Assembly (NCBI GenBank): GCA_963726615.1 | Contig: CAVSCX010000006.1 | Coordinates: forward strand, 67,343 to 131,342 | Source: an uncultured Actinomycetota bacterium | Lineage (GTDB): Bacteria; Actinomycetota; Actinomycetes; JACCUZ01 | DNA length: 64,000 nt | Reading direction: 5' to 3' | Shown: positions 25,661 to 43,412 of the stretch, in pieces | How the letters are laid out: each line of letters begins with the position of its first letter | Position numbering within the stretch: the stretch's first letter is position 1 | The notes under the pieces: model-generated | Database searches by the model: none | What the model saw: the letters and a program-made list of their open reading frames with translations, nothing else | Told to the model about the DNA's origin: nothing | Program-made: the position numbers and the translations under genes

Positions 25661-28600
25661 ATGCGCGGACTTCGGGCGGCCCCAGCGACAGTGACCTCGG
25701 GCCGGAGGGGCGGGGTACTTGCCCGCCGTCTGGCCAGCCAAGCGTCCCGACGGGCCGGCACCTTCTCCGTCGTCGCCGCGATGGTCTGTGGCTTCGTGAC
25801 GGCGCTCCCGGCGCTGCCGGCCCAGGCTGCGACGACGGACAGCCTCAGCGTGACCGTCGTCAGCGCCCGCACCGAGCCCCGCGCGTTCGGCGGTGCCGGC
25901 GTGCAGCTGAACGACCCGATCGACACGTTCTCGTGGATGGTCAACGTGGACGCGACCGGCACCACCGACCAGCGCAGCCCTGCGGTCGGATCCGGCTGCT
26001 CGGCCCTCGACGCCGACTACCCGGACAGCTGCCGGTGGCCGTCGATCGACGAGCCGTCCGGGTGGGCGCCCATCTACGCGCAGGGCACTCAGGACGACCT
26101 CCCGCTCACGAACATCCCCGACGGCCGCTACCTGATCTCTGTGGTCGCAGACGGCTACTCGATCGACGGCGCGCACTTCTGTGTCGACAACGCACCGCCG
26201 GCCGAGCCCGGCTGCGACTCGCCGCTGTCCGGCCCGGTCACCGTGGGGATGCAGCCCAACCCGCTGCCGGACTCGACCCTGCGGGGCCAGGTCTTCGAGG
26301 ACAACGCGCCCACCAACGGTGGACCGGACGCCAACGAGGCCGGCCTGGCCAACTTCGTGGCCCAGGTCAACGACACGCTGGGCGAGGTCAGCACCGACGT
26401 CTACGGCAACCCGCTGTGCACGACATACGTCGGCGAGGACCCGGACACGCACCTCATCCCGCTGGCGGACCTGGACGGGGACATGCTCCCCGTGGTGGAG
26501 CAGCTCGGCGGCAAGTGCAAGAGCGACGACACCGGCATGCTGACGGTGCCGCACCTCGGGCCCAACCGGTACACGCTCTCGGCCGTCGCGCCCGACGGGC
26601 AGACCTGGATCCAGACAACGACCCTCGAGGGCAACCACGACTACGACGCCTGGATGATGGAGGGCGACACCGGCTTCGACACGACCTTCGCCCGGGGCGG
26701 CGAGCCGACCCCGCTGCCGATCTTCGGCTACGTGCGCCCGACCAACGACCTCGCGGCGGGCGGCACTGCGCACGTCAAGGGTGTGGTCGTCGGTGTCAAG
26801 ACCTACACCCCGCCGACTGGCGGTTCCTTCGACTTCTGGGGCGGTAACACCGGGACCAAGGTCGGCGGACCCATCGACCGGCCGTGGCTGTCCCTGCAGG
26901 ACCTCGACAACGGCGACGTGGCCGTCTGGGTGGGTCGTGGCAACGCCGACGGCTCCTTCGACATCAGCGGTGTGCCGGCCGGCAACTACACGCTGACCTG
27001 GTGGGACGAGCCGCAGGACTACAACGTCAACTTCATCAACGTCACGGTGACCGCCGGCGAGACGGTGCAGATGGGTCAGCTGCCGCTGAACGGTTGGTGG
27101 ACCACGTACGACGGCTACGTCTTCAACGACACGAACCGCAACGGTGTCAAGGACGCGGGGGAGTCCGGCATCTCGGGCTTCGCCCTCACCATGCGTCACC
27201 GCGAGAACAACCTGATGGACCGTGGCACGCCGACGGCGGTGACCGACGCAAACGGCTACTACAAGTTCGAGAACGGGTATCCCCTCGGAGAGTGGCTGGT
27301 GATGGAGGCCTACAACGACGCCTTCTACACCACCGGAGTCACCTACCAGGCCGACAACCAGCCGACCCCCACCACGGTCAAGGGCGCTGGTGTCGACGTC
27401 AGCGTGATGCCGATCATCGGCCTCGGCGGGCGGTTGGACTGGGGCGTGCACGCCTACTCGCCCGGCGGAAACGGCATCGATCCTCGCAACGGTGGCATCG
27501 TCGGCACGGTCAGCTACGACACGACCCGCAACGAGCTCGACCCGCAGTACGCCGCCACCGAGGACTGGCAGCCGGGCATCTCCGGGGTCCCGGTCGAGCT
27601 CCACGCGCCGATCGACTGCGGCACCAACGCGGACACCCCGTGCGACGCCAACGAGCTCTACGAGCTGGCGCCGGACGGTTCCTACGCCCAGGGCAACCTG
27701 CTGAACACCTACACCACCGAGTCCTGGGAGCGGCCGACCGGTTGCACCGCTCGCGACGTGGACGGCAACGCACTCGTGCACGGCGTCGACGAGAACGTTC
27801 TCGTGCGCAACCAGGAGACCGACGGCGAGTGCATCTCCAGCTTCATGCAGGAGATCCAGTACGCCCCTTACCCGACCGACCAGGGGACCCCGGACGCCAA
27901 CTTCGGCGCGGCGGTGAACGGCAACTACGGCTTCGGCGACGGCTGCTTCCTACCGGACGGCTCGCCCGGCGAGTTCGACCCGGACAGCGAGAGCTGCTCG
28001 ACGGGGTCGCTCGGGCCGCTCCCCGGCGCTCGCGACTACCTCGTGCACGTCGCCATCCCGGACGACGCCACCGGCAAGCCGATGTACAAGGTCACCGGCG
28101 AGGAGGACATCAACATCGGCAACGGGGACCAGATCATCCCGCAGGTCCCGCCGCCGTCCTGCGCCGGACCGCTGCACACTGTCGACCTCGCCGGCGACGC
28201 GTCACCGGCCGTTCTCGAGACAGGTCTCGTGAGCTCGAACAACGCCCTGACCTGGACCGCCGTCACCGCCCCGGGCAACAACATCACGGTCGCGCTCGAC
28301 GCCAGCGGTGAGGACACTCCGCTCAGCGTGGACGTCACGGGCTCCGACATCGTGGTGAACCTGGCCACCGACAGCGGCGGCGCGGCGGTCTCCACAGCAG
28401 CCGAGGTCGCTGCTGCGGTCTCGGCTGACTCCGCCGCGGCAGCCCTGGTCAGCGTCGCCGACACCGCAGACTCGGACGGCACCGGAGTGGTGACCACGGC
28501 GCCGCCGCCGAGAACCTGGCCAACGGCACGGCCGACGGCTACCCGGCGGTGGTCGGTGACGGAGGGGTCACCAACGACCTGCCGGTCGGCGTCACGGTGC

Positions 28601-28702
28601 CTGCCTCGGCCCCGGTCGACAACGCCACCTTCCTCGACATCGGCGGCTCGCCGTACGAGGGCGCCCCGAAGCCACGGTGCGACACGAAGCTGGTCCGGGT
28701 GA
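25661..28702 (+). CDS. Large secreted multidomain surface protein, N-terminal segment (signal peptide, Cna-B/SdrD-B-like domains, and junk-looking translation after about 28,500)
   Basis: Signal peptide (VVAAMVCGFVTALPALPAQAA) and Cna-B-like repeats (GQVFEDNAPTNG..., YVFNDTNRNGVKDAGESGI). The protein-like translation ends near 28,500 and continues in the +2 frame. Confidence 0.6.
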   Translation: MRGLRAAPATVTSGRRGGVLARRLASQASRRAGTFSVVAAMVCGFVTALPALPAQAATTDSLSVTVVSARTEPRAFGGAGVQLNDPIDTFSWMVNVDATGTTDQRSPAVGSGCSALDADYPDSCRWPSIDEPSGWAPIYAQGTQDDLPLTNIPDGRYLISVVADGYSIDGAHFCVDNAPPAEPGCDSPLSGPVTVGMQPNPLPDSTLRGQVFEDNAPTNGGPDANEAGLANFVAQVNDTLGEVSTDVYGNPLCTTYVGEDPDTHLIPLADLDGDMLPVVEQLGGKCKSDDTGMLTVPHLGPNRYTLSAVAPDGQTWIQTTTLEGNHDYDAWMMEGDTGFDTTFARGGEPTPLPIFGYVRPTNDLAAGGTAHVKGVVVGVKTYTPPTGGSFDFWGGNTGTKVGGPIDRPWLSLQDLDNGDVAVWVGRGNADGSFDISGVPAGNYTLTWWDEPQDYNVNFINVTVTAGETVQMGQLPLNGWWTTYDGYVFNDTNRNGVKDAGESGISGFALTMRHRENNLMDRGTPTAVTDANGYYKFENGYPLGEWLVMEAYNDAFYTTGVTYQADNQPTPTTVKGAGVDVSVMPIIGLGGRLDWGVHAYSPGGNGIDPRNGGIVGTVSYDTTRNELDPQYAATEDWQPGISGVPVELHAPIDCGTNADTPCDANELYELAPDGSYAQGNLLNTYTTESWERPTGCTARDVDGNALVHGVDENVLVRNQETDGECISSFMQEIQYAPYPTDQGTPDANFGAAVNGNYGFGDGCFLPDGSPGEFDPDSESCSTGSLGPLPGARDYLVHVAIPDDATGKPMYKVTGEEDINIGNGDQIIPQVPPPSCAGPLHTVDLAGDASPAVLETGLVSSNNALTWTAVTAPGNNITVALDASGEDTPLSVDVTGSDIVVNLATDSGGAAVSTAAEVAAAVSADSAAAALVSVADTADSDGTGVVTTAPPPRTWPTARPTATRRWSVTEGSPTTCRSASRCLPRPRSTTPPSSTSAARRTRAPRSHGATRSWSG

Positions 28703-31700
28703 ACAACGGCAAGTCGATCGTGCCGATCTTCAATGTCTTCACCGACGTCCCGGTCCCGGCCCGGATGCGCACGGTCATCATCGACGACCTGAACTTCTCG
28801 ACCGACCCGCGCTCGATCATGTACGGCGAGAAGGCCGGTCTGGCCTTCGCCCCGGTCGGCATCTACGACTTCAACAACCGGCTCGAGTACACGACTGAGA
28901 CAGACTTCAACGGCATCTACGACGTTCTGATGCCGTCCACCGACCACATCAGCTGCCCGACGCCCTCCGGCCTGTGCGCGAACATGTACCGGTTCGTGGC
29001 CAACGACCCGGGTGTCCCGGGGCGGCTGAACCTGAACTACAACCCACGGTTCGCCACCCATGCCGCCGGTGCGGAGGGACTGCCTGGCCTGAGCACGTTC
29101 GCCGACCTCGCGCCCACCCAGGTCGGGCTGACCATCGAGCGACCGGGAAGCGGTGTGCAGCAGGCGGTGACCTGTCCGCTCGGCTCCGGCACGCCGCAGC
29201 TGCTCACCGTCTCCCAGCCTTACGTCAACGGCAGCGGTTCCTTCACCATCAACGGCACCGGGTTCGGTGCCACCAAGGGCGCCGGGAAGGTGACCCTCGA
29301 CGGCAGCATCGTGCTGCCGACGACCGGGTGGAACGACACCACGATCGGCGTCACGGTGCCGGCCGGCACGGCCGTCGGGGCCCACCAGCTCGAGGTCACG
29401 GCCGACAACGGTCAGACCACGGTGAACGGCCTCACCTTCCACGTCCGCGGCACGGGATACAACCCTGCGCTGAGGGAGGTCGGCCCCGGGAAGACGTTCG
29501 CCACCATCCAGGCGGCGCTGGACGCGGCGTTCACCAACAACGGTGATGACCTTGTCGTCGTCTACCCGGGCACGCCGGACCTGGTGAACCCGCGGAACAA
29601 CCCCCTCGGTGCCTACTACGAGAACCTGATCATGGCCTCGCCGGTCAAGCTCCAGGGCGTCGGGCCAGGCGGGTTCCAGGGCAGCACGTACCTGCCCGGT
29701 TCGATCATCGACGCGAGCGCCTTCGGCGGTGACACCCAGGTCGCCACCGACTGGTTCACGAGGGTCGGTGCCCTGACCTGGGACGGCAACCAGACTGTCA
29801 GTGACGCCGAGGCGATCTACGTGCTGGCGTCGGAGAACGCCACCACCGCCCCCGGCCGGGCACGACAGTTCACCGGCGGGTTCAAGGCGAGCATCGACGG
29901 CTTCGACCTGCGTGGCGGCATCCAGAACGGGTTCCCGGGCAACATCAACGACCTCACCGGGTTGCCCACCGGGCTGCCGCCGACGATCGAGACCCAGGGC
30001 GGCGCCATCTTCGCGAACGCTTTCGCCCGGTACCTGCAGATCACCAACAACGTGGTCCAGAACAACGGCAGTGCCTTCGGCACGATCCGGATCGGCACGC
30101 CCGACCTGCCGGCGCCCGGTACCAGTCAGCACAACGAGAACCTCAGGATCGCCGACAACAGGATCATCAACAACGCCGGCACCAACCTGGCCGGCGGCGT
30201 CGGTCTCTTCGCGGGAACGGACAGCTACGAGGTGACCGGCAACGACATCTGCGGCAACTTCTCGGTCGAGTACGGCGGCGGCCTGAGCATCTACGGCCGC
30301 AGCCCGGGCGGGAAGATCCACCACAACCGGATCTTCTACAACATGTCCAACGACGAGGGCGGCGGCATCATGATTGCCGGCCAGCTGCCGGCCAACCCCA
30401 GTGCCCTCTCGCCGGGCTCGGGTCCGGTGGACATCTACAACAACCAGATCCAGGCCAACCTGGCCAACGACGACGGTGGCGGCATCCGCTTCCTCATGGC
30501 CGGCGGCCCCGGTGGCACCGACGCCATGAACGTCTACAACAACATGATCGTGAACAACGTCTCGACGCACGAGGGCGGGGGCATCGGGCTCAACGACGCA
30601 CCCAACGTCCGGGTCGTGAACAACACCATCATGAAGAACCTGACGACGGCGACCGCCGTCACGTCCAACGGGCAGCCCGCCCCGGCCGGGCTCTCGACCT
30701 CGGCAAACAGCGTCCAGCTGCAGGCAACCCTTCCGGGCAGCGCTCCGACGTTCAGCAACCCGACCCTGTTCAACAACATCTTCTGGGACAACCGGGCGGG
30801 GACCCGTGCCGGGACGAAGGTCACCGGCATCGGTGCCGCCGGGGACGCGGCCCCGATCGACCACTGGGACGTGGGCGTGGCTGACGGCACCGGTCTGCTG
30901 GCGCCGACGAGCTCTGTCGTCCAGCTGGACAACGGTGGCCACCCCTACACCGCCAGCGCGTCCAACTCGTCCGCCGACCCGCAGGTCGTCGACGACAGCT
31001 ACGACGTGTCGGCGTCCTTCGTGACGTGGCGGCAGAACCCGGCCTTCGTCGACGCAACCCTCGTGGCGGTGGAGCTGCCGCCGAACCAGCAGGGGAACTA
31101 CCACCTCACGGCGACGTCGCCCGCGGTCGACCTGGGTGTGCCGAACCTGGGCGGGGTCAATGCGCCGGCGACCGACATCGACGACCAGGCCCGGCCGGCC
31201 GGCGCCGCCTTCGACAGCGGTGCGGACGAGTACCTGGCTGCGGCGCCGCCTCCTCCGCCGACGAGCTCCGACCTGTACTTCTCGACGACCGGGAACGCGA
31301 ACCCGCCGGGAGTCACCGGCACGGCCGACGACGCGGACATCTACCGGTGGAACGGCACCGCCTACAACCGGGAGATCGACTTCACTGCCGCGCCCTACAA
31401 TCTGCCTGCCAGCGCGAACGTCGACGGGTTCTCCCGGGTTGACGCGAACCACTTCTACCTGTCCTTCACCGCCAGCGTCAGCCTGCCAGGGTTCGGCACC
31501 GTGGCGGACGAGGACGTCGTGTTCTGGAACAACGGGTCGTGGTTGCTCTGGTTCGACGGCAGCACGCACGGCGTGGCCGGCGACATCGGAGCGGTCAGCG
31601 TGGCCGGGACGACCATGTACTTCTCTACCAAGAACAACGCGGTGCCGCCGGGGGCCGGTGGTCCCGGCGACAACGCCGACATCTACCGGTGGAACGGCGG

Positions 31701-32730
31701 CAGCTCGTACACCCGGATGGTCGACGCCAGCGCGGCGCCGTACAACCTGCCGAACTCCGGTTCCGGCACCGGTCCGACCAACCCCAACGTCGACGGCCTG
31801 ATCTGGGTCGGCCCCAACGACTTCTACCTGTCGTTCAGCAACACGACGACCACCATGCCCGGCGGGCTTGGCGCCGTCCAGGACGAGGACGTCGTGCACT
31901 GGACCGGTTCGTGGTCGGTGTGGTTCGACGGCACCGCCCACGGCCTGACCTCCAACGCCCTGGACCTCGACGCCATCGCGTTCGCCTCAGGCGCACTTGC
32001 GCCGCCTCCGCCGCCACCGGTCCCGCCGGCGCCGCCGCTGGAGTTCTCCACGCTGGGGAACACCAACCCGCCCGGGGTCAGCGGCACGGCCGACGACGCC
32101 GACATCTACCGGTGGGACGGGGCCTACAGCCGGGCGCTGGACCTCTCCGCGGCGCCCTACAACCTGCCGGGCAACGCCAACGTGGACGGCTTCGACCGGG
32201 TGAACGCCACCCAGTTCTACGTCTCCTTCTCCGCGGCCAACACCACCGTGCCGGGACTTGGCGCGGTCCAGGACGAGGACGTGCTGTTCTGGAACGGCAG
32301 CGCCTGGTCGGTGTGGTTCAACGGCACCGCACACGGGCTGACGGCCGCCGACGCAGACCTCGATGCGATCAGCATCGTCGGGTCGACGCTGTACTTCTCG
32401 ACGCTGGGCAGCATCAACCCGCCGGGTGTCACCGGGACGGCCGACAACTCCGACATCTACAGCTGGAACGGCAGCGCCTACGCCCGGGTGTGGGACGCCA
32501 CGGCGAACGGGCTCCCGGCCGCCACGAACGTCGACGGCTACGTGCGGGTGAGCGCCACCCAGTTCTACCTGTCCTTCAGCCCGGCGACCACGGCCGTCTC
32601 GGGTCTGGGCACCGTGGAGGACGAGGACGTCGTCTACCGCAACGGCAGCACCTGGTCGGTGTACTTCGACGGCACCGCTCATGGGCTGACCACCGCCAAC
32701 CTCGACGTGGACGCCTTCGATGTCCCGTAA
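28549..32730 (+). CDS. Large secreted multidomain protein, continuation segment: IPT/TIG domain, right-handed parallel beta-helix (pectate-lyase-like) repeats, poly-Pro linkers, and a C-terminal 4x tandem-repeat domain
   Basis: The frame is open and protein-like from 28,498 onward (GAAAENLANGTADGYPAVVGDGGVTNDLP). Beta-helix repeats (NNVVQNNGSAFGTIRIG, HNRIFYNMSNDEGGGIMIAG, NNMIVNNVSTHEGGGIGLN). The C-terminal repeats end ...LDVDAFDVP. Confidence 0.65.
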   Translation: MVGDGGVTNDLPVGVTVPASAPVDNATFLDIGGSPYEGAPKPRCDTKLVRVNNGKSIVPIFNVFTDVPVPARMRTVIIDDLNFSTDPRSIMYGEKAGLAFAPVGIYDFNNRLEYTTETDFNGIYDVLMPSTDHISCPTPSGLCANMYRFVANDPGVPGRLNLNYNPRFATHAAGAEGLPGLSTFADLAPTQVGLTIERPGSGVQQAVTCPLGSGTPQLLTVSQPYVNGSGSFTINGTGFGATKGAGKVTLDGSIVLPTTGWNDTTIGVTVPAGTAVGAHQLEVTADNGQTTVNGLTFHVRGTGYNPALREVGPGKTFATIQAALDAAFTNNGDDLVVVYPGTPDLVNPRNNPLGAYYENLIMASPVKLQGVGPGGFQGSTYLPGSIIDASAFGGDTQVATDWFTRVGALTWDGNQTVSDAEAIYVLASENATTAPGRARQFTGGFKASIDGFDLRGGIQNGFPGNINDLTGLPTGLPPTIETQGGAIFANAFARYLQITNNVVQNNGSAFGTIRIGTPDLPAPGTSQHNENLRIADNRIINNAGTNLAGGVGLFAGTDSYEVTGNDICGNFSVEYGGGLSIYGRSPGGKIHHNRIFYNMSNDEGGGIMIAGQLPANPSALSPGSGPVDIYNNQIQANLANDDGGGIRFLMAGGPGGTDAMNVYNNMIVNNVSTHEGGGIGLNDAPNVRVVNNTIMKNLTTATAVTSNGQPAPAGLSTSANSVQLQATLPGSAPTFSNPTLFNNIFWDNRAGTRAGTKVTGIGAAGDAAPIDHWDVGVADGTGLLAPTSSVVQLDNGGHPYTASASNSSADPQVVDDSYDVSASFVTWRQNPAFVDATLVAVELPPNQQGNYHLTATSPAVDLGVPNLGGVNAPATDIDDQARPAGAAFDSGADEYLAAAPPPPPTSSDLYFSTTGNANPPGVTGTADDADIYRWNGTAYNREIDFTAAPYNLPASANVDGFSRVDANHFYLSFTASVSLPGFGTVADEDVVFWNNGSWLLWFDGSTHGVAGDIGAVSVAGTTMYFSTKNNAVPPGAGGPGDNADIYRWNGGSSYTRMVDASAAPYNLPNSGSGTGPTNPNVDGLIWVGPNDFYLSFSNTTTTMPGGLGAVQDEDVVHWTGSWSVWFDGTAHGLTSNALDLDAIAFASGALAPPPPPPVPPAPPLEFSTLGNTNPPGVSGTADDADIYRWDGAYSRALDLSAAPYNLPGNANVDGFDRVNATQFYVSFSAANTTVPGLGAVQDEDVLFWNGSAWSVWFNGTAHGLTAADADLDAISIVGSTLYFSTLGSINPPGVTGTADNSDIYSWNGSAYARVWDATANGLPAATNVDGYVRVSATQFYLSFSPATTAVSGLGTVEDEDVVYRNGSTWSVYFDGTAHGLTTANLDVDAFDVP

Positions 32731-34140: not shown

Positions 34141-35481
34141 ATGACGAGAGGTAGTGCAGTCATGCCTGGGAAGACTCGCGCTCGCGCATTGCGCCGTCCT
34201 GCGCTGCTCGCCGTCGTGCTGGCGGTGTTCTCGGCCGCCGGTGCCACGCTCACCAGCGTGTCTCCGGCGACCGCCGATCCGCGGCCGAAGGTCGGCATCG
34301 TCTGCACCTCGGGCAGCGGTGGCTCGGCGGACCACCCGATCTTCAACCTGACCACCAAGACGGGCTACATCAGCCTGCCGGACGGCAACACCGCCTTCAT
34401 GTGGGGCTACTCCAGCGGGTTCGACGGGTTCCAGCACCCCGGGCCGGTTCTCTGCGTCAACAAGGGCGACACCGTCACCGTCATCCTGCACAACACGCTG
34501 CCCGAGGCGACGTCGATCGCCTTCCCCGGCCAGCAAGGCGTGCTCGCCGACGGCGCACCCGCGCAACCACAGGTCAACGGCGGCGGGACGGTGACCTCGC
34601 TCACCGACACCGCGCCGGCGGTCAACGGCACTGTCACCTACAGCTTCGTCGCCGACCACCCTGGAACGTTCCTGTACGAGTCCGGGACGAACCCCGAGAA
34701 GCAGGTTCGGATGGGTCTGTTCGGTGCGCTGATCGTCCGGCCGGCGCTGGGCGCGAACTACGCCTACGACCGCTCGGACAGCCGGTTCACGCCGTCGGAG
34801 GAGTTCATGGTGCTCCTCTCCGAGATCGACCCGTACCAGCACCAGGCGGTGGAGCAGGGCAAGAACTTCAACATCAACAACTACCACCCGCGGTACTGGC
34901 TCATCAACGGCCGCGGCTTCCCGGACAGCATCGCCGACAACGACGCGTCCTGGCTGCCGACCCAGCCCTACGGCGCGCTGGCGCAGGTGTACCCGTACGA
35001 CAGCGTGGAGCACCCGTACCCGGGGATGGCCCGCTACCTCAGCGTGGGTACCGAGGACTACCCGTTCCACCCGCACGGCAACAACGGACTGGTCATCGGC
35101 CGGGACGGCCGCCCGCTCGAGGGCCCGGCCGGGGAGGACCTGTCGTTCGAGAAGTTCGACATCAACGTCGGCCCGGGGCAGACCTGGGACGTGATCTTCA
35201 AGTGGTACGACGCCGAGGGCTACAACCCCACCACCAAGCCGGTGCCCGACACCGTCCCCGGCCTGCTCAACTCGGTGGTCGGCGTCTTCTACAGCGGCAG
35301 CCCGTACCTCGGGACGAGAGAGGTCCTGCCACCGGGAACGCCGACCCTCAACCAGTGCGGTGAGTACTACATCATCTCGCACAACCACGCGCTGTTCCAG
35401 ATCACCTCGTGGGGCGCGAACATGACCGGCCCGATCACCTACATGCGGATCGACCCGCCCAAGCCCAACGACTGCGGTTGA
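34141..35481 (+). CDS. Multicopper-oxidase-like cupredoxin protein carrying domain-1-type trinuclear-cluster ligands (HPHG, HNH), with a Sec signal
   Basis: Signal peptide (LLAVVLAVFSAAGATLTSVSPATA). The N-terminal cupredoxin domain lacks Cu ligands. C-terminal FHPHGNNG and ISHNHALFQI motifs. Confidence 0.65.
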   Translation: MTRGSAVMPGKTRARALRRPALLAVVLAVFSAAGATLTSVSPATADPRPKVGIVCTSGSGGSADHPIFNLTTKTGYISLPDGNTAFMWGYSSGFDGFQHPGPVLCVNKGDTVTVILHNTLPEATSIAFPGQQGVLADGAPAQPQVNGGGTVTSLTDTAPAVNGTVTYSFVADHPGTFLYESGTNPEKQVRMGLFGALIVRPALGANYAYDRSDSRFTPSEEFMVLLSEIDPYQHQAVEQGKNFNINNYHPRYWLINGRGFPDSIADNDASWLPTQPYGALAQVYPYDSVEHPYPGMARYLSVGTEDYPFHPHGNNGLVIGRDGRPLEGPAGEDLSFEKFDINVGPGQTWDVIFKWYDAEGYNPTTKPVPDTVPGLLNSVVGVFYSGSPYLGTREVLPPGTPTLNQCGEYYIISHNHALFQITSWGANMTGPITYMRIDPPKPNDCG

Positions 35482-35500: not shown

Positions 35501-38482
35501 ATGACGCGAGGGACGACGATGAAGAAGGCAGCTCTGTCTCTGCTCGGCGCCGGTGCGCTGGCGGCCCTGGGCATCCTGGCGGGACCGGCTGGTCCGGCGT
35601 CCGCCGCCGCCGTGACGATCGACCTCTACACCGCAACGGGCACTACCAGCCTGCCCGGGGCGGCGTCGCTCCCGGTGTGGGGGTACCGCACCAGCGCGGG
35701 CGCGGTGACCCAGCCCGGTGGCCCGGTGCTCACTGTCGACGAGGGCGACACGGTCACCATCACGCTGCACAACGGCCTCTCCGAGTCCACGGGCCTGCTT
35801 CTGCAGGGCCAGCGAATGGTCCCGGACCGCAGCGGTGTGTCCGCCGGCGGCACCAAGACCTACAGCTTCACCGCGAGCGACCCGGGTACGTACCTGTACG
35901 AGGCAGCGCTGCTCCCGAACGCCCAGCACCAGGTGGCGATGGGGCTCTACGGCGCTCTCGTGGTCCGGCCCGCCGGCGCGCCCGGCCAGGCCTACGGTGC
36001 TGCGAGCACGGCGTTCGACGACCAGGCTGTGCTGCTCCTCAGTGAGATCGACCCGGCGTTGAACAACGCGGGCAACAAGGCGACCTTCGACATGCGCAAG
36101 TTCGCGCCGCGCTACTTCCTGGTCAACGGCAGGGCGCACCCGGCGACCACCACGATCCCGACCACAGGTGGGCGCACGGTGCTCCTGCGCTACGTCAACG
36201 CGGGCATCCAGTACCACTCGATGTCCGTCCTGGGCGCGCACCAACGGGTCATCGCCCTCGACGGCAGCCGGTTGGACTACGCCCGCAGGTACGTCGCGGA
36301 GACCTTCGGCCCCGGCCAGACCGCCGACGCCCTCGTCACGGCCCCGGCCGCGGCGACCGATACCAAGCTGAGCGTCTACGACGGCAGCCTGCAGCTGCAC
36401 AACAGCAACACCGGCGGGATCGGCGGCATGCTCACCTCGATCGACGTGGCGCCCAGCCTCTCGGGAGGCGACACGACCGGCCCGATCACCACGGCCGCGA
36501 CCTTGACGGGTACCACCCTGACCGCGCATGTCGACGACTCCACCCGGGGTGGTGCGGACGTCCAGGCGGCTGAGTACTTCCTCGACACTGTCGTCGCACC
36601 GGGCGACGGGACAGGCATGGCCGGTGCCTTCAGCTCGGCGGCAGTCGACGTCACCGCGACGTCGGTGTCGGTCCCGAGCGGGCATCACGTGCTTTACCTG
36701 CGAGGGCAGGACTCGACGGGCAACTGGGGGCCGCTCACCTCGGTGCTGGTCTCCGGCGGCGACGCCAACGGCCCGGTCACCAGGAGCGCGCTCCTCGCGC
36801 CCCGGCTCACGAACCACGCCAACACCGGCGGGGTGGCCGTCTCCGCGACCGGCGACGACAGCGGCACCGGAGGATCAGACATCACCGCCGGCGAGTACTG
36901 GATCGACGGCGGCTCGCACGTCGCCATGACTGTGAACACGGCAGCACCGGTGGCCAGCCTGGACGCCACCATCCCGGCCGGCGTCATCAACGGAGTCGGC
37001 GCTACCCCCGGGCTCGCCGAAGGCACCCGGGTCGTGTCCATCCGCAGCCAGGACGCCGGGGGCACCTGGGGCGCACCCGTCACGGTCAACCTGGTGGTGG
37101 ACGTCACACCACCGACGACTGGTGGCGTCTCGGTGAGCCCGACGCCGAACAACGGCACCCTGCCCGTCAACACCAGCACGCCGGCGGTGCGGGTCACTGC
37201 GACGAGCCTGTCGGACCCGATCTCCAGCGACGTCAACAGCCCGATCGGTGCCGCCGAGGTGTTCATCGACACGGTCGGTGCCAACGGCTCGGGCATCCCG
37301 CTGGGCGCCAGCGACGGGGTCTACAACGATCCGTCCGAGGGCGGGTACGCCGACATCCCGCTGTCGACCGTCAAGGCACTGGGCAACGGCCCGCACACGC
37401 TGTCCGTGCACGCCAAGGACGCTGCCGGCAACTGGGGCGCCTTCGCCACCACGACGCTGCTCGTCGACAAGGTCGGCCCCGCCGTCTCTGGCGCCTCGGC
37501 GACCCCGAACCCGACCCAGGCGGCCACGTCGGTGACGCTGACGGCGTCGGCGACGGACACCGCCACCGCCATCACGCAGGCCGAGTGGTTCACCGGGACC
37601 GACCCCGGCTTCGGGAACGGCACGCCGATGGCCATGTCCGGCTCCGGGCTCGGTCCGATCGGGCTCTCGGCCACCATCGACGTGAGCAGCTGGAACGAGG
37701 GCTCGTACGCCCTGCGGGTGCGGGCGAAGGACACGGCGGGCAACTGGGGGACGACCACGAGCACGACGCTCGCGGTGACCGCGCCGCTCGAGTTCTCCAC
37801 GTTCGGCAACACGAACCCGCCAGGTGTGACCGGCACGGCTGACGACGCGGACATCTACGGCTGGAGCGGGTCGGCGTTCAGCAGGGTGCTCGACATGTCG
37901 GCCGCGCCGTACAACCTGCCGGGCAACGCCAACGTGGACGGGTTCGACCGGGTCAGCCCGTCGACGTTCTACCTGTCCTTCAGCGGCGCGACCACCACCG
38001 TGCCCGGGCTCGGAGCGGTCCAGGACGAGGACGTGCTGTTCTGGAACGGCACCACCTGGTCGGTGTGGTTCGACGGGACGGCGCACGGCCTGACCGCCGC
38101 GAACCAGGACATCGACGCGATCAGCGTCGTCGGCTCCACGCTGTACTTCTCCACGGTCGGCAACACCAACCCGCCGGGAGTCGGCGGTGCGGCAGACGAT
38201 GCCGACATCTACAGCTGGAACGGCAGCTCCTACGCCCGGGTCTGGGACGCCACCGCCAACGGCCTCGCCGGCGCCGCCAACGTCGACGGCCTGGTGTTCC
38301 TGGACAGCAGCCACTTCTACCTGTCCTTCAGCCCCACCACCACGACCGTGCCCGGCCTGGGAGCCGTCGAGGACGAGGACGTGGTCTACAACAACGGCGG
38401 CACGTGGAAGGTCTACTTCGACGGCACCGCCCACGGACTGACGGCGGCCAACCTCGACGTGGACGCCTTCGATGTGCCGTGA
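35501..38482 (+). CDS. Secreted cupredoxin-like (ligand-less MCO-like) / Ig-like-domain protein with the shared C-terminal tandem-repeat domain
   Basis: Signal peptide (MKKAALSLLGAGALAALGILAGPAGPASA). Its N-terminal 280 aa are homologous to the N-terminus of the 34141 protein. GNWG-containing Ig-like repeats are present. The C-terminal repeats are identical in type to those of 28549-32730 and 40917-43412. Confidence 0.7.
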   Translation: MTRGTTMKKAALSLLGAGALAALGILAGPAGPASAAAVTIDLYTATGTTSLPGAASLPVWGYRTSAGAVTQPGGPVLTVDEGDTVTITLHNGLSESTGLLLQGQRMVPDRSGVSAGGTKTYSFTASDPGTYLYEAALLPNAQHQVAMGLYGALVVRPAGAPGQAYGAASTAFDDQAVLLLSEIDPALNNAGNKATFDMRKFAPRYFLVNGRAHPATTTIPTTGGRTVLLRYVNAGIQYHSMSVLGAHQRVIALDGSRLDYARRYVAETFGPGQTADALVTAPAAATDTKLSVYDGSLQLHNSNTGGIGGMLTSIDVAPSLSGGDTTGPITTAATLTGTTLTAHVDDSTRGGADVQAAEYFLDTVVAPGDGTGMAGAFSSAAVDVTATSVSVPSGHHVLYLRGQDSTGNWGPLTSVLVSGGDANGPVTRSALLAPRLTNHANTGGVAVSATGDDSGTGGSDITAGEYWIDGGSHVAMTVNTAAPVASLDATIPAGVINGVGATPGLAEGTRVVSIRSQDAGGTWGAPVTVNLVVDVTPPTTGGVSVSPTPNNGTLPVNTSTPAVRVTATSLSDPISSDVNSPIGAAEVFIDTVGANGSGIPLGASDGVYNDPSEGGYADIPLSTVKALGNGPHTLSVHAKDAAGNWGAFATTTLLVDKVGPAVSGASATPNPTQAATSVTLTASATDTATAITQAEWFTGTDPGFGNGTPMAMSGSGLGPIGLSATIDVSSWNEGSYALRVRAKDTAGNWGTTTSTTLAVTAPLEFSTFGNTNPPGVTGTADDADIYGWSGSAFSRVLDMSAAPYNLPGNANVDGFDRVSPSTFYLSFSGATTTVPGLGAVQDEDVLFWNGTTWSVWFDGTAHGLTAANQDIDAISVVGSTLYFSTVGNTNPPGVGGAADDADIYSWNGSSYARVWDATANGLAGAANVDGLVFLDSSHFYLSFSPTTTTVPGLGAVEDEDVVYNNGGTWKVYFDGTAHGLTAANLDVDAFDVP

Positions 38483-38551: not shown

Positions 38552-39058
38552 ATGAGCACTGCGACCCTGCCCGACGCCGATGTCCAGCCGGAAGACCCGG
38601 CCCCGCCTCGCCGGTGGCGCTGGGCGGTGCTCGTCCTCGTGCTCGCCCTGCTCGCTGGTGGCTTCGCGGCCCGCGGCCTGTGGGCCGAGCAGAAGGCGGA
38701 CATCCGCTCGGGAACGACGCTGGTGGACGCCGACGGGCTGGCGGCCCGCTACGGCGTGAAGGTCACACTGCTGGCCGTGACCGCAGCGGGGGGCCTCGTC
38801 GAGCTCCGCTACCAGGTCGTCGACCCGGACAAGGCCGACGCCCTGCGGCACGACCTCGAGCTCGTCCCGGCCATCGTGGTCGAGGACACCGGGGCCACCT
38901 TGGTGCTGTCCTCGCTCCCGCACAACCATGGTGAGACCCGGCTGGGCGGCACCTACTTCTTCCTGTTCCCCAACGCACAGAACGCGCTCCACGCCGGCAC
39001 GCTGGTGACCCTTGTGGTGGGCGACGTGCGACTCGAGCACGTGAAGGCGCAGGGATGA
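38552..39058 (+). CDS. Membrane-anchored hypothetical protein, a possible periplasmic accessory of CopCD
   Basis: 168 aa with one N-terminal TM helix (WRWAVLVLVLALLAGGFAA). It is translationally coupled to the downstream CopC-CopD gene (stop overlaps start at 39055). Confidence 0.5.
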   Translation: MSTATLPDADVQPEDPAPPRRWRWAVLVLVLALLAGGFAARGLWAEQKADIRSGTTLVDADGLAARYGVKVTLLAVTAAGGLVELRYQVVDPDKADALRHDLELVPAIVVEDTGATLVLSSLPHNHGETRLGGTYFFLFPNAQNALHAGTLVTLVVGDVRLEHVKAQG

Positions 39059-40920
39059 CCGGAGGACGCTCGTGCGTGGTGCGCCGGCTCGCGTGGAGCC
39101 TGCTCGCTGCCGTGACCGTGCTCGTCCTGTCGGCAGTACCGGCGTCGGCTCACAGCGAGATCGAACGGTCCGACCCGCCGAACGGCGGCATGGTCGCCGT
39201 GGGCAGGACCACTCTGTCGCTCTCGTTCGGGGAGCGCGTCAACACCGGGGCGAGCACGTTCGAGCTGCACAGCCGGGACGGGACGCGCGCCGAGGCAACG
39301 GTCGAGCCGGCCGGCCGTGACGGCGGCCGGGTCGTGCAGCTGAGCACCGCGCCGCTGGCCTTCGGCATCTATAGCTTGGACTGGCGGGTCCTCTCGCTCG
39401 AGGACGGGCACCCGTCAAGCGGCTCGATCGTGTTCGGCGTCGGGCTGCGACCCGTCCTGGTGCCCTCGGGCGGCGCCGTCCGCCCGGAAGGCCCGAGCCT
39501 CGTCCTGCGGTGGGTGGACCTGTCGGCGATGCTGCTCGCGATCGGCGCGCTGGCGGTCTCCGGCCGGGTGCTCGGCTCGATGGGTGAAGCGGGGGCAGGT
39601 CCCCGACGACGGGCCCGCCGGATCGCCGCGGCGGCGGCCGGGCTGGCGATCGTGTCGGGGGCGCTCACACCAGTCGTGCGGACCCAGCGCGGGGGCAGCT
39701 CCCTCGGCGAGTGGGCAGGGCAGATCTGGGCGACCCTGACCGGCACCCCGTGGGGCCACCTGTGGCTGGCCCGGGAGCTCGCCGTCCTGCTGGCCGCGGG
39801 CGCGTTGTTGTCCTGGGCGACCAGGCGGCCGGACTCGGCCGGCCGGGTCCGGATCGCGCTGGTCGCCCTGGTGGCGTCCGCGTGGCTGGAGGGCTGGGCC
39901 GGGCACGCCTCGGCCCTGCCGACCCGGTCCGCGCTCGCTGGTCTTGCCGCGTCCGCCCACCTCGTCGCGGCGGGCGTCTGGGCCGGCGGCCTCGTCGTCC
40001 TGGCCCTGTGCGTGCTCCCGGTGATGCGGCGCGCCCCGGACCTTCGAGGTCCCGTCCTGGCGTCGGTGTGGCGAACGTTCAGCCCACGCGCTGCCGTCGC
40101 GTCGGTCGTCCTGCTGGCGACCGGTCTCTACGAGGCCGGGCGGCACGTGCCGACGCTGGGCTCGGTCACCGCGACGCTGTACGGCGGTGCCGTGGCCGCG
40201 AAGACGCTGCTGGTACTGCTGGCGCTGGCCCTGGCCGCGGTGAACACGCTTGTCGTCAACCCACGGCTGGCGGCGCGGGTGGGCCGGGCGATCGGGCGAC
40301 CTGAAGGGTGGGCGCCGGTGTCATTGCGACGGTTCACCACCGTGGTGATGGCCGAGGTGCTCGTCCTGGTCGTGGCGGCGGGGACCGCGGCTGTGCTCAC
40401 CTCCGTCCCGACCGCCCGCGAGATCGCTGCCGCCGCCCCGGTGACGGCTCCGGCATTCGACACCGTCGACGGCCTCTTCCTCACGGTCGAGGACGTTCCC
40501 GCGGGGCCGCACCGGAGCCGGCTGATCGTGCGGGTGCGGGCCACCGTCCTGCCCGAGCCGGCGCCCGTGACCGGAGTGGTGGTCCGTCTCGTCGGCCCCC
40601 GTGGCAGGCCGTCGCGCGTCACCCCGGAGCCGGTGGAGCCGGGCCGGTACGAAGCCGAGAAGCGCGCACCGTCCCCCGGGCGCTGGACCGCCCGGGTCGC
40701 CGTGCACCGGGCGGGGCTGCCGGACTCCGTGGCGCGGGTCCGGTGGACGGTGGCAGCGCCGACCTCGAACACGGTCCGCCCGCTCGAGGTTGTCACCACC
40801 GGCGTCGCCGGGCTGCTGCTGGCTGCCCTGCTGACTGTCGTCTGGCACGCCCGCGTGCGCCGACCGCCCGCGGCTCCCGGGCCGGTCGCACCCGTGCTGA
40901 CCGACGCGAGCCGGCGATGA
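39055..40920 (+). CDS. CopC-CopD fusion copper-resistance/uptake membrane protein
   Basis: N-terminal CopC domain (signal peptide then AHSEIERSDPPNG) followed by eight predicted TM helices of CopD type. Confidence 0.8.
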   Translation: MTGGRSCVVRRLAWSLLAAVTVLVLSAVPASAHSEIERSDPPNGGMVAVGRTTLSLSFGERVNTGASTFELHSRDGTRAEATVEPAGRDGGRVVQLSTAPLAFGIYSLDWRVLSLEDGHPSSGSIVFGVGLRPVLVPSGGAVRPEGPSLVLRWVDLSAMLLAIGALAVSGRVLGSMGEAGAGPRRRARRIAAAAAGLAIVSGALTPVVRTQRGGSSLGEWAGQIWATLTGTPWGHLWLARELAVLLAAGALLSWATRRPDSAGRVRIALVALVASAWLEGWAGHASALPTRSALAGLAASAHLVAAGVWAGGLVVLALCVLPVMRRAPDLRGPVLASVWRTFSPRAAVASVVLLATGLYEAGRHVPTLGSVTATLYGGAVAAKTLLVLLALALAAVNTLVVNPRLAARVGRAIGRPEGWAPVSLRRFTTVVMAEVLVLVVAAGTAAVLTSVPTAREIAAAAPVTAPAFDTVDGLFLTVEDVPAGPHRSRLIVRVRATVLPEPAPVTGVVVRLVGPRGRPSRVTPEPVEPGRYEAEKRAPSPGRWTARVAVHRAGLPDSVARVRWTVAAPTSNTVRPLEVVTTGVAGLLLAALLTVVWHARVRRPPAAPGPVAPVLTDASRR

Positions 40921-43412
40921 GGCGGCTCTGTGTCGGCGCCGTGGCCGTGGCCGTCGCCGTCCTGCTCGCGGCGCCGACCCAGGTGTCGGCACGAACGATC
41001 CCCGAGCCCGCCCCGGGAACGCTCCGGCCGGACGTCGTGGCCCTGCTCGACAGCGCCGCTCCCGGTGACGAGGTCACCGTGATCGTCACGCTGCGGGACC
41101 GGGCAGACCTCCGTGGCCTGCGGCATCGGCCGCGCAAGGCCCGGCTGAGGGGCGTCATCACCGAGCTCCGGTCGACCGCAGAGTCCGCGCAGGTGCCGTT
41201 GCGCGGCCGCCTGCGCACCCTCGCGCGCCAGGGCACGGTGGCCGCCGCCACGCCGCTGTGGATCGTCAACGGGATCGCGGTGACCGCCACACCCGCCGTC
41301 GTCCGCGAGCTGGCGACACGTCCGGACGTCGCGAGCATCACCCCGGACGAGGTCCCCGTCGTCACCACTGCGGGCAGCCCCGAGCCGAACCAGGTCGCCA
41401 TCGGCGCACCCTCGCTCTGGGGCCTCGGGCAGTCCGGTCAGGGCGTGGTGGTGGCCAACCTGGACACCGGCGTGGACCTGTCCCATCCCGACCTCGCCGC
41501 ACGGTGGCGTGGCGGGAGCAACAGCTGGTACGACCCGTACGGGCAGCACCCCTCGACACCCACGGACCTGTCCGGCCACGGCACCGCGACCATGGGGGTG
41601 ATGGTCGGGGGCGACTCGGGCGGGACCTCGATCGGGACGGCCCCCGGCGCGAGCTGGATCGCAGCCAGGATCTTCAACGACTCCGGCGTCGCGACGGCGA
41701 CCGCGATCCACCAGGCGTTCCAGTGGGTGCTCGACCCCGATCACGACCCGGCCACCGATGACGCCCCGCGCGTCGTGAACGGTTCGTGGTCGATCGGCTC
41801 CGGCCCGGGTTGCGACCTGTCCTTCCAGCCCGACGTCCAGTCCTTGCGGGCGGCAGGCATCCTGCCCGTGTTCGCCGCCGGCAACTTCGGCTCGGGGGCA
41901 TCGAGCAGCGTCAGCCCGGCCAACTACCCGGAGTCGCTGTCGGTCGGTGCCGTGCTGGCCAGCAACAAGGTCTACTCGGCGAGCAGCCGCGGTCCCTCCG
42001 GCTGCGGCGGCCGGGCCCGGGTCTTCCCAGACGTCGTCGCTCCGGGTGTGAACGTGTACTCCGCGGACCGCTACGGCCTCTACCAGTACGCCTCGGGCAC
42101 CTCGATGGCCGCGCCGCACGCATCGGGTGCGCTGGCCCTGCTCCTGGCTGCCCACCCCGGGCTCACACCGGACCAGCAGCAGGCGGCGGTCACCACCACG
42201 GCGAGGGACCTGGGCGTGGCCGGACCGGACGACAGCTACGGCAACGGGCTGCTCGACCTTCCGGCCGCGAACCAGTCACTCGGAGGAACGCCGCAGCCGT
42301 CGCCCGACTTCGGCGTGTCCGTCGACCCGCCCGAAGCCGCTGTGACGCCCGGCGGCGGTTCGACCTGGACGGTCGCGGTCACGCCGGCGAACGGCTTCAC
42401 CGCAGATGTCGCGCTCTCGCTGTCCGGACTGGGCGCCGGCCAGGCGACCTGGTCGTTCAACCCTGCCACGGTCCCCGCGGGGACGGGCGCGTCCCAGCTG
42501 ACGGTGACCACCTCGTCGTCCCTCGGGGCGGGCAGCTATCCGCTGACGGTCACCGCCACGAGCGGCGCGCTCACCAGGACCACCACGGCGTCCCTCACGG
42601 TCGCGGCGCTTCCGCCGCCGCCTCCGCCGCCGCCGCCTCCGCCGCCACCGCCTCCGCCGCCACCGCCTCCGCCGCCTCCGCCGCCTCCGCCGCCGCCTCT
42701 CCCGACACCGGTGGGACTGGAGTTCTCGACTCTCGGCCTCACCCGGCCGCCCGGCGTCGCCGGAAGCGCTGACGACGCGGACATCTACGGCTGGAACGGG
42801 TCGGTGTTCAGCCGAGTGCTCGACCTGTCGGCGGCGCCGTACAGGCTGCCGGCCAAGGCCAAGGTGGACGGCTTCGACCGGGTCAGCCCGACCTCGTTCT
42901 ACCTGTCCTTCAGCGCCGCGAACACCACCGTCCCGGGTCTCGGGGCGGTCCAGGACGAGGACGTGGTGCTCTGGACGGGCACGAGGTGGACGCTGTACTT
43001 CGACGGCACCTCACGCGGGCTGACCGCCGACAACGAGGACCTCGACGCGATCAGCGTCGTCGGCTCGACGCTGTACTTCTCCACCGTCGGCAACACCAAC
43101 CCGCCGGGAGTTGCCGGGGCGGCGGACGATGCCGACATCTACAGCTGGAACGGCAGGTCCTTCGCCCGCGTCTGGGACGCGACCGCCCACGGGCTCGCCG
43201 GCGCGGCGAAGGTCGACGGCCTGGTGTTCCGTGACGCCACCCACTTCCACCTGTCCTTCAGCGCCGCGAACACCACCGTGCCGGGTCTCGGCGCGGTCCA
43301 GGACGAGGACGTGGTCTACGACAACGGCGGCACCTGGTCGGTCTACTTCGACGGCACGGCACACGGGTTGACCGGCAACACCCTCGACCTGGACGCCTTC
43401 GACCTGAGGTAG
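40917..43412 (+). CDS. Secreted subtilisin-like serine protease (peptidase S8) with a poly-Pro linker and the shared C-terminal tandem-repeat domain
   Basis: Catalytic triad regions (VVANLDTGV, HGTATMG, GTSMAAPHASG). A run of 28 prolines. The C-terminal repeats end ...LDLDAFDLR. Its ATG overlaps the CopCD stop (ATGA). Confidence 0.85.
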   Translation: MRRLCVGAVAVAVAVLLAAPTQVSARTIPEPAPGTLRPDVVALLDSAAPGDEVTVIVTLRDRADLRGLRHRPRKARLRGVITELRSTAESAQVPLRGRLRTLARQGTVAAATPLWIVNGIAVTATPAVVRELATRPDVASITPDEVPVVTTAGSPEPNQVAIGAPSLWGLGQSGQGVVVANLDTGVDLSHPDLAARWRGGSNSWYDPYGQHPSTPTDLSGHGTATMGVMVGGDSGGTSIGTAPGASWIAARIFNDSGVATATAIHQAFQWVLDPDHDPATDDAPRVVNGSWSIGSGPGCDLSFQPDVQSLRAAGILPVFAAGNFGSGASSSVSPANYPESLSVGAVLASNKVYSASSRGPSGCGGRARVFPDVVAPGVNVYSADRYGLYQYASGTSMAAPHASGALALLLAAHPGLTPDQQQAAVTTTARDLGVAGPDDSYGNGLLDLPAANQSLGGTPQPSPDFGVSVDPPEAAVTPGGGSTWTVAVTPANGFTADVALSLSGLGAGQATWSFNPATVPAGTGASQLTVTTSSSLGAGSYPLTVTATSGALTRTTTASLTVAALPPPPPPPPPPPPPPPPPPPPPPPPPPPPPLPTPVGLEFSTLGLTRPPGVAGSADDADIYGWNGSVFSRVLDLSAAPYRLPAKAKVDGFDRVSPTSFYLSFSAANTTVPGLGAVQDEDVVLWTGTRWTLYFDGTSRGLTADNEDLDAISVVGSTLYFSTVGNTNPPGVAGAADDADIYSWNGRSFARVWDATAHGLAGAAKVDGLVFRDATHFHLSFSAANTTVPGLGAVQDEDVVYDNGGTWSVYFDGTAHGLTGNTLDLDAFDLR
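42610..42698 (+). repeat. Simple-sequence (CCGCCGCCT)n-like repeat encoding a roughly 28-residue poly-proline linker
   Basis: Near-perfect 9-bp (3-codon) units within the S8 protease gene. Confidence 0.8.

Follow-up and report, generated by a model that had tools for sequence, protein, structure and literature searches.

Why would three different secreted proteins, encoded at one locus of an uncultured Actinomycetota bacterium, end in the same domain? We analysed the window, the 64,000 nucleotide stretch of DNA in which the genes lie. A first-pass annotation had proposed that the C-termini are homologous. Confirming this, pairwise BLASTP matched the C-terminal parts of three plus strand open reading frames (ORFs; 28549-32730, 35501-38482 and 40917-43412) with E values from 1e-80 to 1e-136. 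The homologous unit, of ~230 amino acids and hereafter the module, occurs twice in a giant protein (G) and once each in a cupredoxin/Ig protein (B) and an S8 protease (C). No further copy was found in the window. The features are as follows.

25661-32730, + strand: giant secreted protein G; signal peptide, SdrD_B/SpaA-like domains, TIG, right-handed beta-helix, choice-of-anchor Q and two propeller modules (Pfam and NCBIfam matches)
31246-31260, + strand: short proline run (PPPPP) before module G1
31273-31998, + strand: propeller module G1, 242 amino acids, the most divergent copy
31999-32037, + strand: proline-rich linker between G1 and G2
32038-32727, + strand: propeller module G2, 230 amino acids, ending DVDAFDVP, then a stop codon
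32720-34135, + strand: MCO1, multicopper-oxidase-like, with a Tat-like RRRFLQ signal read from the sequence
34141-35481, + strand: MCO2, multicopper-oxidase-like
35501-38482, + strand: protein B; Sec signal peptide, N-terminal cupredoxin (multicopper-oxidase-like) region, Ig-like domains (Big_13/Y_Y_Y), one propeller module
37787-38479, + strand: propeller module B, ending DVDAFDVP
38552-39058, + strand: small membrane-anchored protein of no family
39055-40920, + strand: CopC-CopD fusion
40917-43412, + strand: protein C; signal peptide, S8 subtilase, Ig-like spacer, 29-proline linker, one propeller module
42612-42698, + strand: linker of 29 consecutive prolines ahead of module C
42717-43409, + strand: propeller module C, 231 amino acids, ending DLDAFDLR, then a stop codon

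Relationships between the module copies

Module B shares 79% protein identity with both module C (E 6e-136) and module G2, while G2 and C are 71% identical. Module G1 is 54-59% identical to the other three (E 1e-80 to 7e-88), and its closest relatives are G1 modules from other genomes. Recent gene conversion among the window copies was ruled out; identical DNA extends over 37 nt at most. In all three proteins, the motif D[VL]DAFD[VL][PR] directly precedes the stop codon.

The ORF at 28549-32730 had been taken for a secreted protein. It has no signal peptide, and is instead the C-terminal part of a frameshifted gene starting at 25661. This gene, encoding ~2300 amino acids, is split in the window into ORFs 25661-28702 and 28549-32730. 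The frameshift lies near 28430-28520, within a ~100 amino acid insertion. An intact ortholog of 2268 amino acids, from related locus L001, aligns with frame 2 up to 28204 and with frame 1 from 28513.

Position and linkers

According to the first-pass annotation, the module is always C-terminal and always follows a poly-proline linker. The former is predominantly so: of 115 locus ORFs, 110 end in the module, and it is C-terminal in 105 of 143 cluster representatives. However, giant adhesin-like proteins with Big_9, cadherin, PKD or Calx-beta domains carry 3-5 internal modules and, in one such protein, the module is N-terminal. The linker claim did not hold. Five prolines precede G1, PPPPPPVPPAPP precedes G2 and 29 prolines precede module C, but module B directly follows an Ig-like domain (...LAVTAP, then LEFST) with no proline run. 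Among related loci, at least four consecutive prolines were found upstream of only 46 of 135 modules.

Some database matches look like stand-alone modules of ~200-230 amino acids but are not free-standing. For example, P0096 is just downstream of a truncated S8 gene, and a frameshift or gene-call artefact likely explains it. Many other database matches begin mid-module. A weak SdiA-regulated (YjiK) match in P0234 was also rejected; it falls in a separate N-terminal region, outside the module.

The module is a four-bladed beta-propeller

The module consists of four repeats, or blades, of ~57 amino acids in an (a-b)2 pattern. They form two double units of ~115 amino acids, 67% identical to one another. 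Eight repeats per domain had been proposed. This number applies only across 31240-32730, where two modules of the giant protein lie in tandem. The motif originally proposed, D-[AEN]-[DS]-D-[IV]-x-x-W-[NT]-G, matches a single site as literally written. Two motifs describe the repeats: blades 1 and 3 carry D-[DN]-[AS]-D-[IV]-Y-x-W-[ND]-G, and blades 2 and 4 carry [QE]-D-E-D-V-[VL]-x-[WYF].

The AF2 model of the module has a pLDDT of 97.4, a pTM of 0.93 and 20 strands. We read the modelled strands as four four-stranded blades, with an extra hairpin in blades 2 and 4. A beta-propeller or a beta-sandwich had been suggested; the model and its structural matches bear out the propeller and not the sandwich. 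In module B, the blades are arranged as follows.

37787-37933, + strand: blade 1 (a-type), strands 2-4; LEFST ... ADDADIYGW ... FSRVLD; AF2 strands E2-5, E23-26, E31-35 and conservation map
37934-38107, + strand: blade 2 (b-type); VDGFDRV, FYLSFS, extra hairpin TTVPGLGAV, QDEDVLFW, WSVWFDG; AF2 strands E50-57, E60-65, E69-72, E76-79, E83-86, E91-95
38108-38281, + strand: blade 3 (a-type); DIDAISVV, LYFST, ADDADIYSW, YARVWD; AF2 strands E109-115, E118-123, E141-144, E149-153
38282-38455, + strand: blade 4 (b-type); VDGLVFLD, FYLSFS, hairpin, EDEDVVY, WKVYFDG; AF2 strands E166-212
38456-38479, + strand: C-terminal closing strand DVDAFDVP; AF2 strand E225-229

Blades 1 and 3 are 65% identical, and blades 2 and 4 are 72% identical. 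The closing strand DVDAFDVP aligns in register with DIDAISVV, the strand that opens blade 3. Hence, judging from this alignment, the C-terminal strand probably supplies strand 1 of blade 1 in a velcro closure.

Each blade repeats the same conserved positions. Strand 1 begins with D-[AG], D-x-D comes ahead of strand 3, and W/Y and F-D-G follow. The D-[AG] pair is invariant or nearly so in every blade (D51-G52, D108/A, D167-G168 and D226-A227). In canonical propeller topology the 2-3 and 4-1 loops share a face, so the conserved residues would all lie on one face of the propeller.

The module matched no named family

We searched Pfam and NCBIfam with full proteins and isolated modules. At E<=10, only chance-level matches fell on the module. 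Among PDB sequences, a single-sequence search gave chance matches only (myosin, E about 1) and a profile search gave none at E<=10. The first-pass annotation had recognised no named family and, in these databases, no characterised domain was matched. We rate the module as a new domain family with a known fold. Literature on bacterial four-bladed propellers, on MCO/CopD/subtilisin clusters and on C-terminal propellers of subtilases yielded nothing on the domain or the cluster.

The module marks a conserved gene cluster

The module family comprises 3243 clusters at 50% identity. Its main home is a syntenic cluster encoding the giant protein, two multicopper-oxidase-like proteins, the cupredoxin/Ig protein, the small membrane protein, CopC-CopD and the S8 protease. 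Between G and B are MCO1 and MCO2, syntenic in 53-54 of 66 related loci. The small membrane protein (56 of 66 loci) and the CopC-CopD fusion (46 of 66) are encoded between B and C, and the start of the protein C gene overlaps the CopC-CopD stop (ATGA). This seven-gene cluster, found in Actinomycetota, Chloroflexota and Methylobacter, is 45-90% conserved and extends across phylum boundaries. The closest related locus, from an uncultured Actinomycetota metagenome-assembled genome, is ~80% identical. Module-bearing loci came from these three groups and from Desulfopila, where locus L028 has the module without any cluster genes. Across phyla, modules are 65-70% identical.

The Chloroflexota and Methylobacter clusters keep the module only on B; among Chloroflexota orthologs it was counted on B in 10 of 10, S8 in 0 of 10 and G in 1 of 9. 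Three of the G orthologs in Chloroflexota lack a tail altogether. In this sense the module is exchangeable and dispensable. In S8 orthologs, predicted structures place a ConA-like jelly roll in the propeller slot; polysaccharide lyases and lectin domains have the folds most similar to it. No Pfam match was obtained either for the alternative C-terminal domains of Chloroflexota and Methylobacter orthologs. The one on G orthologs ends ...DDFGGGxxP.

A probable role in tethering secreted proteins

Homology, fold, position in the protein, distribution, synteny and replacement in orthologs were observed directly; binding as such, the nature of the ligand, Ca2+ dependence and the placement of conserved residues on a single face are inferences. 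On balance, we think it probable that the module is non-catalytic and exchangeable, and holds secreted passengers on a common extracellular target. The giant beta-helix protein (through two copies), the cupredoxin/Ig protein and the S8 protease would be tethered in this way. The module is very acidic (27 D+E against 4 K+R; pI ~4.05). It has no cysteine in any of the four window copies, and no conserved His or Met was found. Together with conserved positions repeated in each blade, this composition argues for a non-catalytic binding character. The extreme C-terminal position, the tandem in G and the 3-5 internal copies in adhesin-like proteins are behaviour expected of a binding module. Further support comes from G, in which the passenger has a beta-helix and a choice-of-anchor Q domain. 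Presumably, this NCBIfam name marks proteins with a C-terminal anchor that varies between species. Conservation in B orthologs is higher in the module (62-82% identity) than in its passenger (44-72%).

The target would most probably be a polymer, for example a polysaccharide, that is extracellular or associated with the envelope. Binding may occur at the strongly acidic 'top' face, to which each blade would contribute its conserved D-x-D/aromatic motif. On the other hand, a very acidic module could bind acidic polymers only across a cation bridge. We assume such a bridge, with bound Ca2+ as the probable mediator of the contact. The jelly-roll replacement and the folds of the passengers, rather than the module itself, point to a glycan. 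A ligand-binding role had been among those first proposed. It is the best reading, and fits the tandem copies, the varied adhesin-like passengers and the lectin/lyase-type replacement in orthologs.

The composition of the module also bears on a direct part in the chemistry of the multicopper-oxidase cluster, either catalytic or in copper handling. Two MCO-like genes, the cupredoxin-bearing B and CopC-CopD provide such a context, and one homolog fuses the module to a CopC domain. We nevertheless regard this as very unlikely. Cysteine and conserved His or Met are lacking, and what is conserved in every blade is a set of Asp, Gly and aromatic residues. Moreover, orthologs of G and S8 dispense with the module or have it replaced, and many passengers that carry it are unrelated to copper.

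Alternatively, export or attachment machinery could recognise the module, as with T9SS C-terminal domains (CTDs) or sortase signals, and the cluster's S8 protease, for example, might later remove it. The C-terminal position, the conserved terminal D-x-D-A-F-D-x-P, flexible proline linkers at some copies, a protease always encoded in the cluster and the choice-of-anchor Q domain in G would all suit such a signal. We judge it very unlikely. All three proteins have ordinary N-terminal signal peptides, read from their sequences, and the module is a folded 230 amino acid propeller with no hydrophobic tail. Tandem, internal and N-terminal copies occur in other proteins, and the module is present in both monoderm-type phyla and Methylobacter/Desulfopila. 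Co-occurrence with a specific sortase or transporter had been suggested as a check; no such gene is conserved in the cluster. The sorting analogy with T9SS fails on fold, size and taxa, and orthologous G and S8 proteins do without the module or have a jelly roll instead. No T9SS CTD or other sorting model matched.

A third possibility is assembly. Here, propellers would bind one another or a cluster-encoded protein, and G, through its two modules, would scaffold B and the protease in one extracellular complex, functionally resembling cohesin-dockerin. The module is concentrated in one syntenic cluster, and the two modules of G face exactly two other module-bearing cluster proteins. Paralogous modules are also closer within than between loci (B-S8, 73.6% versus 64.9%; B-G2, 68.6% versus 64.5%). 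However, old gene conversion can generate this excess, with no identical tract above 37 nt left. Identity of 65-70% across phyla is expected if a partner travels with the cluster. That figure fits a conserved cluster-borne protein partner no less well than an envelope polymer specific to one lineage, a point against tethering to such a polymer. Solved hemopexin-like domains mediate protein-protein contacts and dimerisation, and the dimeric MMP-9 hemopexin domain (1itv) is among our structural matches. Conversely, with the module only on B, the Chloroflexota and Methylobacter clusters offer no heterotypic partner. The module is also found on unrelated adhesin-like proteins outside the cluster, and at Desulfopila L028. 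We consider docking possible, but unlikely.

Tethering remains our preferred reading. A broader and rather doubtful conjecture is that the cluster encodes an extracellular copper-oxidase machine, undescribed and horizontally mobile, whose common docking element is the propeller. The module would fix the components via Ca2+ on an extracellular polysaccharide or mineral matrix. On the same conjecture, it would stand in bacteria for what the protease-hinge-hemopexin architecture is in animal MMPs, through either convergence or ancient relationship. The components of this putative machine are the giant beta-helix protein, two MCO-like subunits, the cupredoxin/Ig protein, the small membrane protein, CopC-CopD and the S8 protease.

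Significance

The module is a second four-bladed propeller family, unrelated in sequence to hemopexin-like proteins. Absent from Pfam, NCBIfam and PDB yet so large, the family merits a domain entry. This would annotate the tails of thousands of 'hypothetical' and 'bacillopeptidase' proteins that Actinomycetota and Chloroflexota of soil and freshwater encode. In addition, the module points to a seven-gene cluster with tight synteny, built around multicopper-oxidase-like proteins; identifying the ligand would reveal where this system works. Finally, the propeller is a compact, cysteine-free and highly symmetric scaffold for protein engineering.

Comparison with known systems

Like the module, T9SS CTDs occupy the extreme C-terminus of diverse secreted proteins and have a conserved terminal strand. 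They are beta-sandwiches of ~80-100 amino acids, restricted to Bacteroidota and coupled to PorU/PorV. In contrast, the module is a 230 amino acid propeller of Actinomycetota and Chloroflexota, and is internal or absent in some proteins and orthologs. T9SS CTD models in NCBIfam and Pfam did not match it, and no PorU/PorV-type genes are conserved in the cluster. Tails of the sortase or exosortase type (LPXTG, PEP-CTERM) were not found; the C-termini read ...LDVDAFDVP or ...LDLDAFDLR and contain no hydrophobic stretch. An analogy with SLH or choline-binding repeats had also been drawn. Profiles for these, LysM and other cell-wall-binding repeats in Pfam and NCBIfam matched neither the full proteins nor the isolated modules.

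Carbohydrate-binding modules (CBMs) and ConA-like jelly rolls of secreted bacterial enzymes share position, modularity, tandem duplication and linker attachment with the module, but their fold is entirely unlike the propeller. No CBM or lectin profile matched the module. The subtilase accessory P-domain (PF01483) and PPC (PF04151) were not found in protein C, in which Peptidase_S8 is the sole Pfam match. Beta-propeller lectins of the tachylectin-2, PLL and AAL/RSL types form one equivalent sugar site per blade or interface from a repeated motif. The module has a repeated acidic/aromatic motif in each blade; no such lectin ranks at the top of its structural or sequence matches.

The four-bladed propellers closest to the module among our matches to solved structures are all hemopexin-like proteins. 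These include plant seed lectins/albumins such as PA2 albumin of chickpea (3s18), with 11% identity to the module and no shared motifs detected. PA2-type albumins are stand-alone plant proteins, whereas the module is the C-terminal part of secreted bacterial enzymes. The hemopexin-like repeat family (PF00045) forms a four-bladed beta-propeller of ~200 residues, a fold that the module shares. In this family, an Asp opens each innermost strand and lines a central ion channel; the D-[AG] pairs of the module may correspond to these residues. PF00045 gave no match even at E<=10, nor did any hemopexin or MMP sequence, and structural alignments with hemopexin-like domains (MMPs, hemopexin, vitronectin) show 9-15% identity. 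In MMP and hemopexin domains a disulfide joins blades 1 and 4. The module cannot form this bond because it has no cysteine, and closure would instead depend on the C-terminal strand. The module also differs in its ~57 amino acid blades, a 17-residue 2-3 loop or extra hairpin, and (a-b)2 symmetry. Unlike the hemopexin-like domain, it is bacterial, very acidic, attached to several types of passenger and, at times, arranged in tandem.

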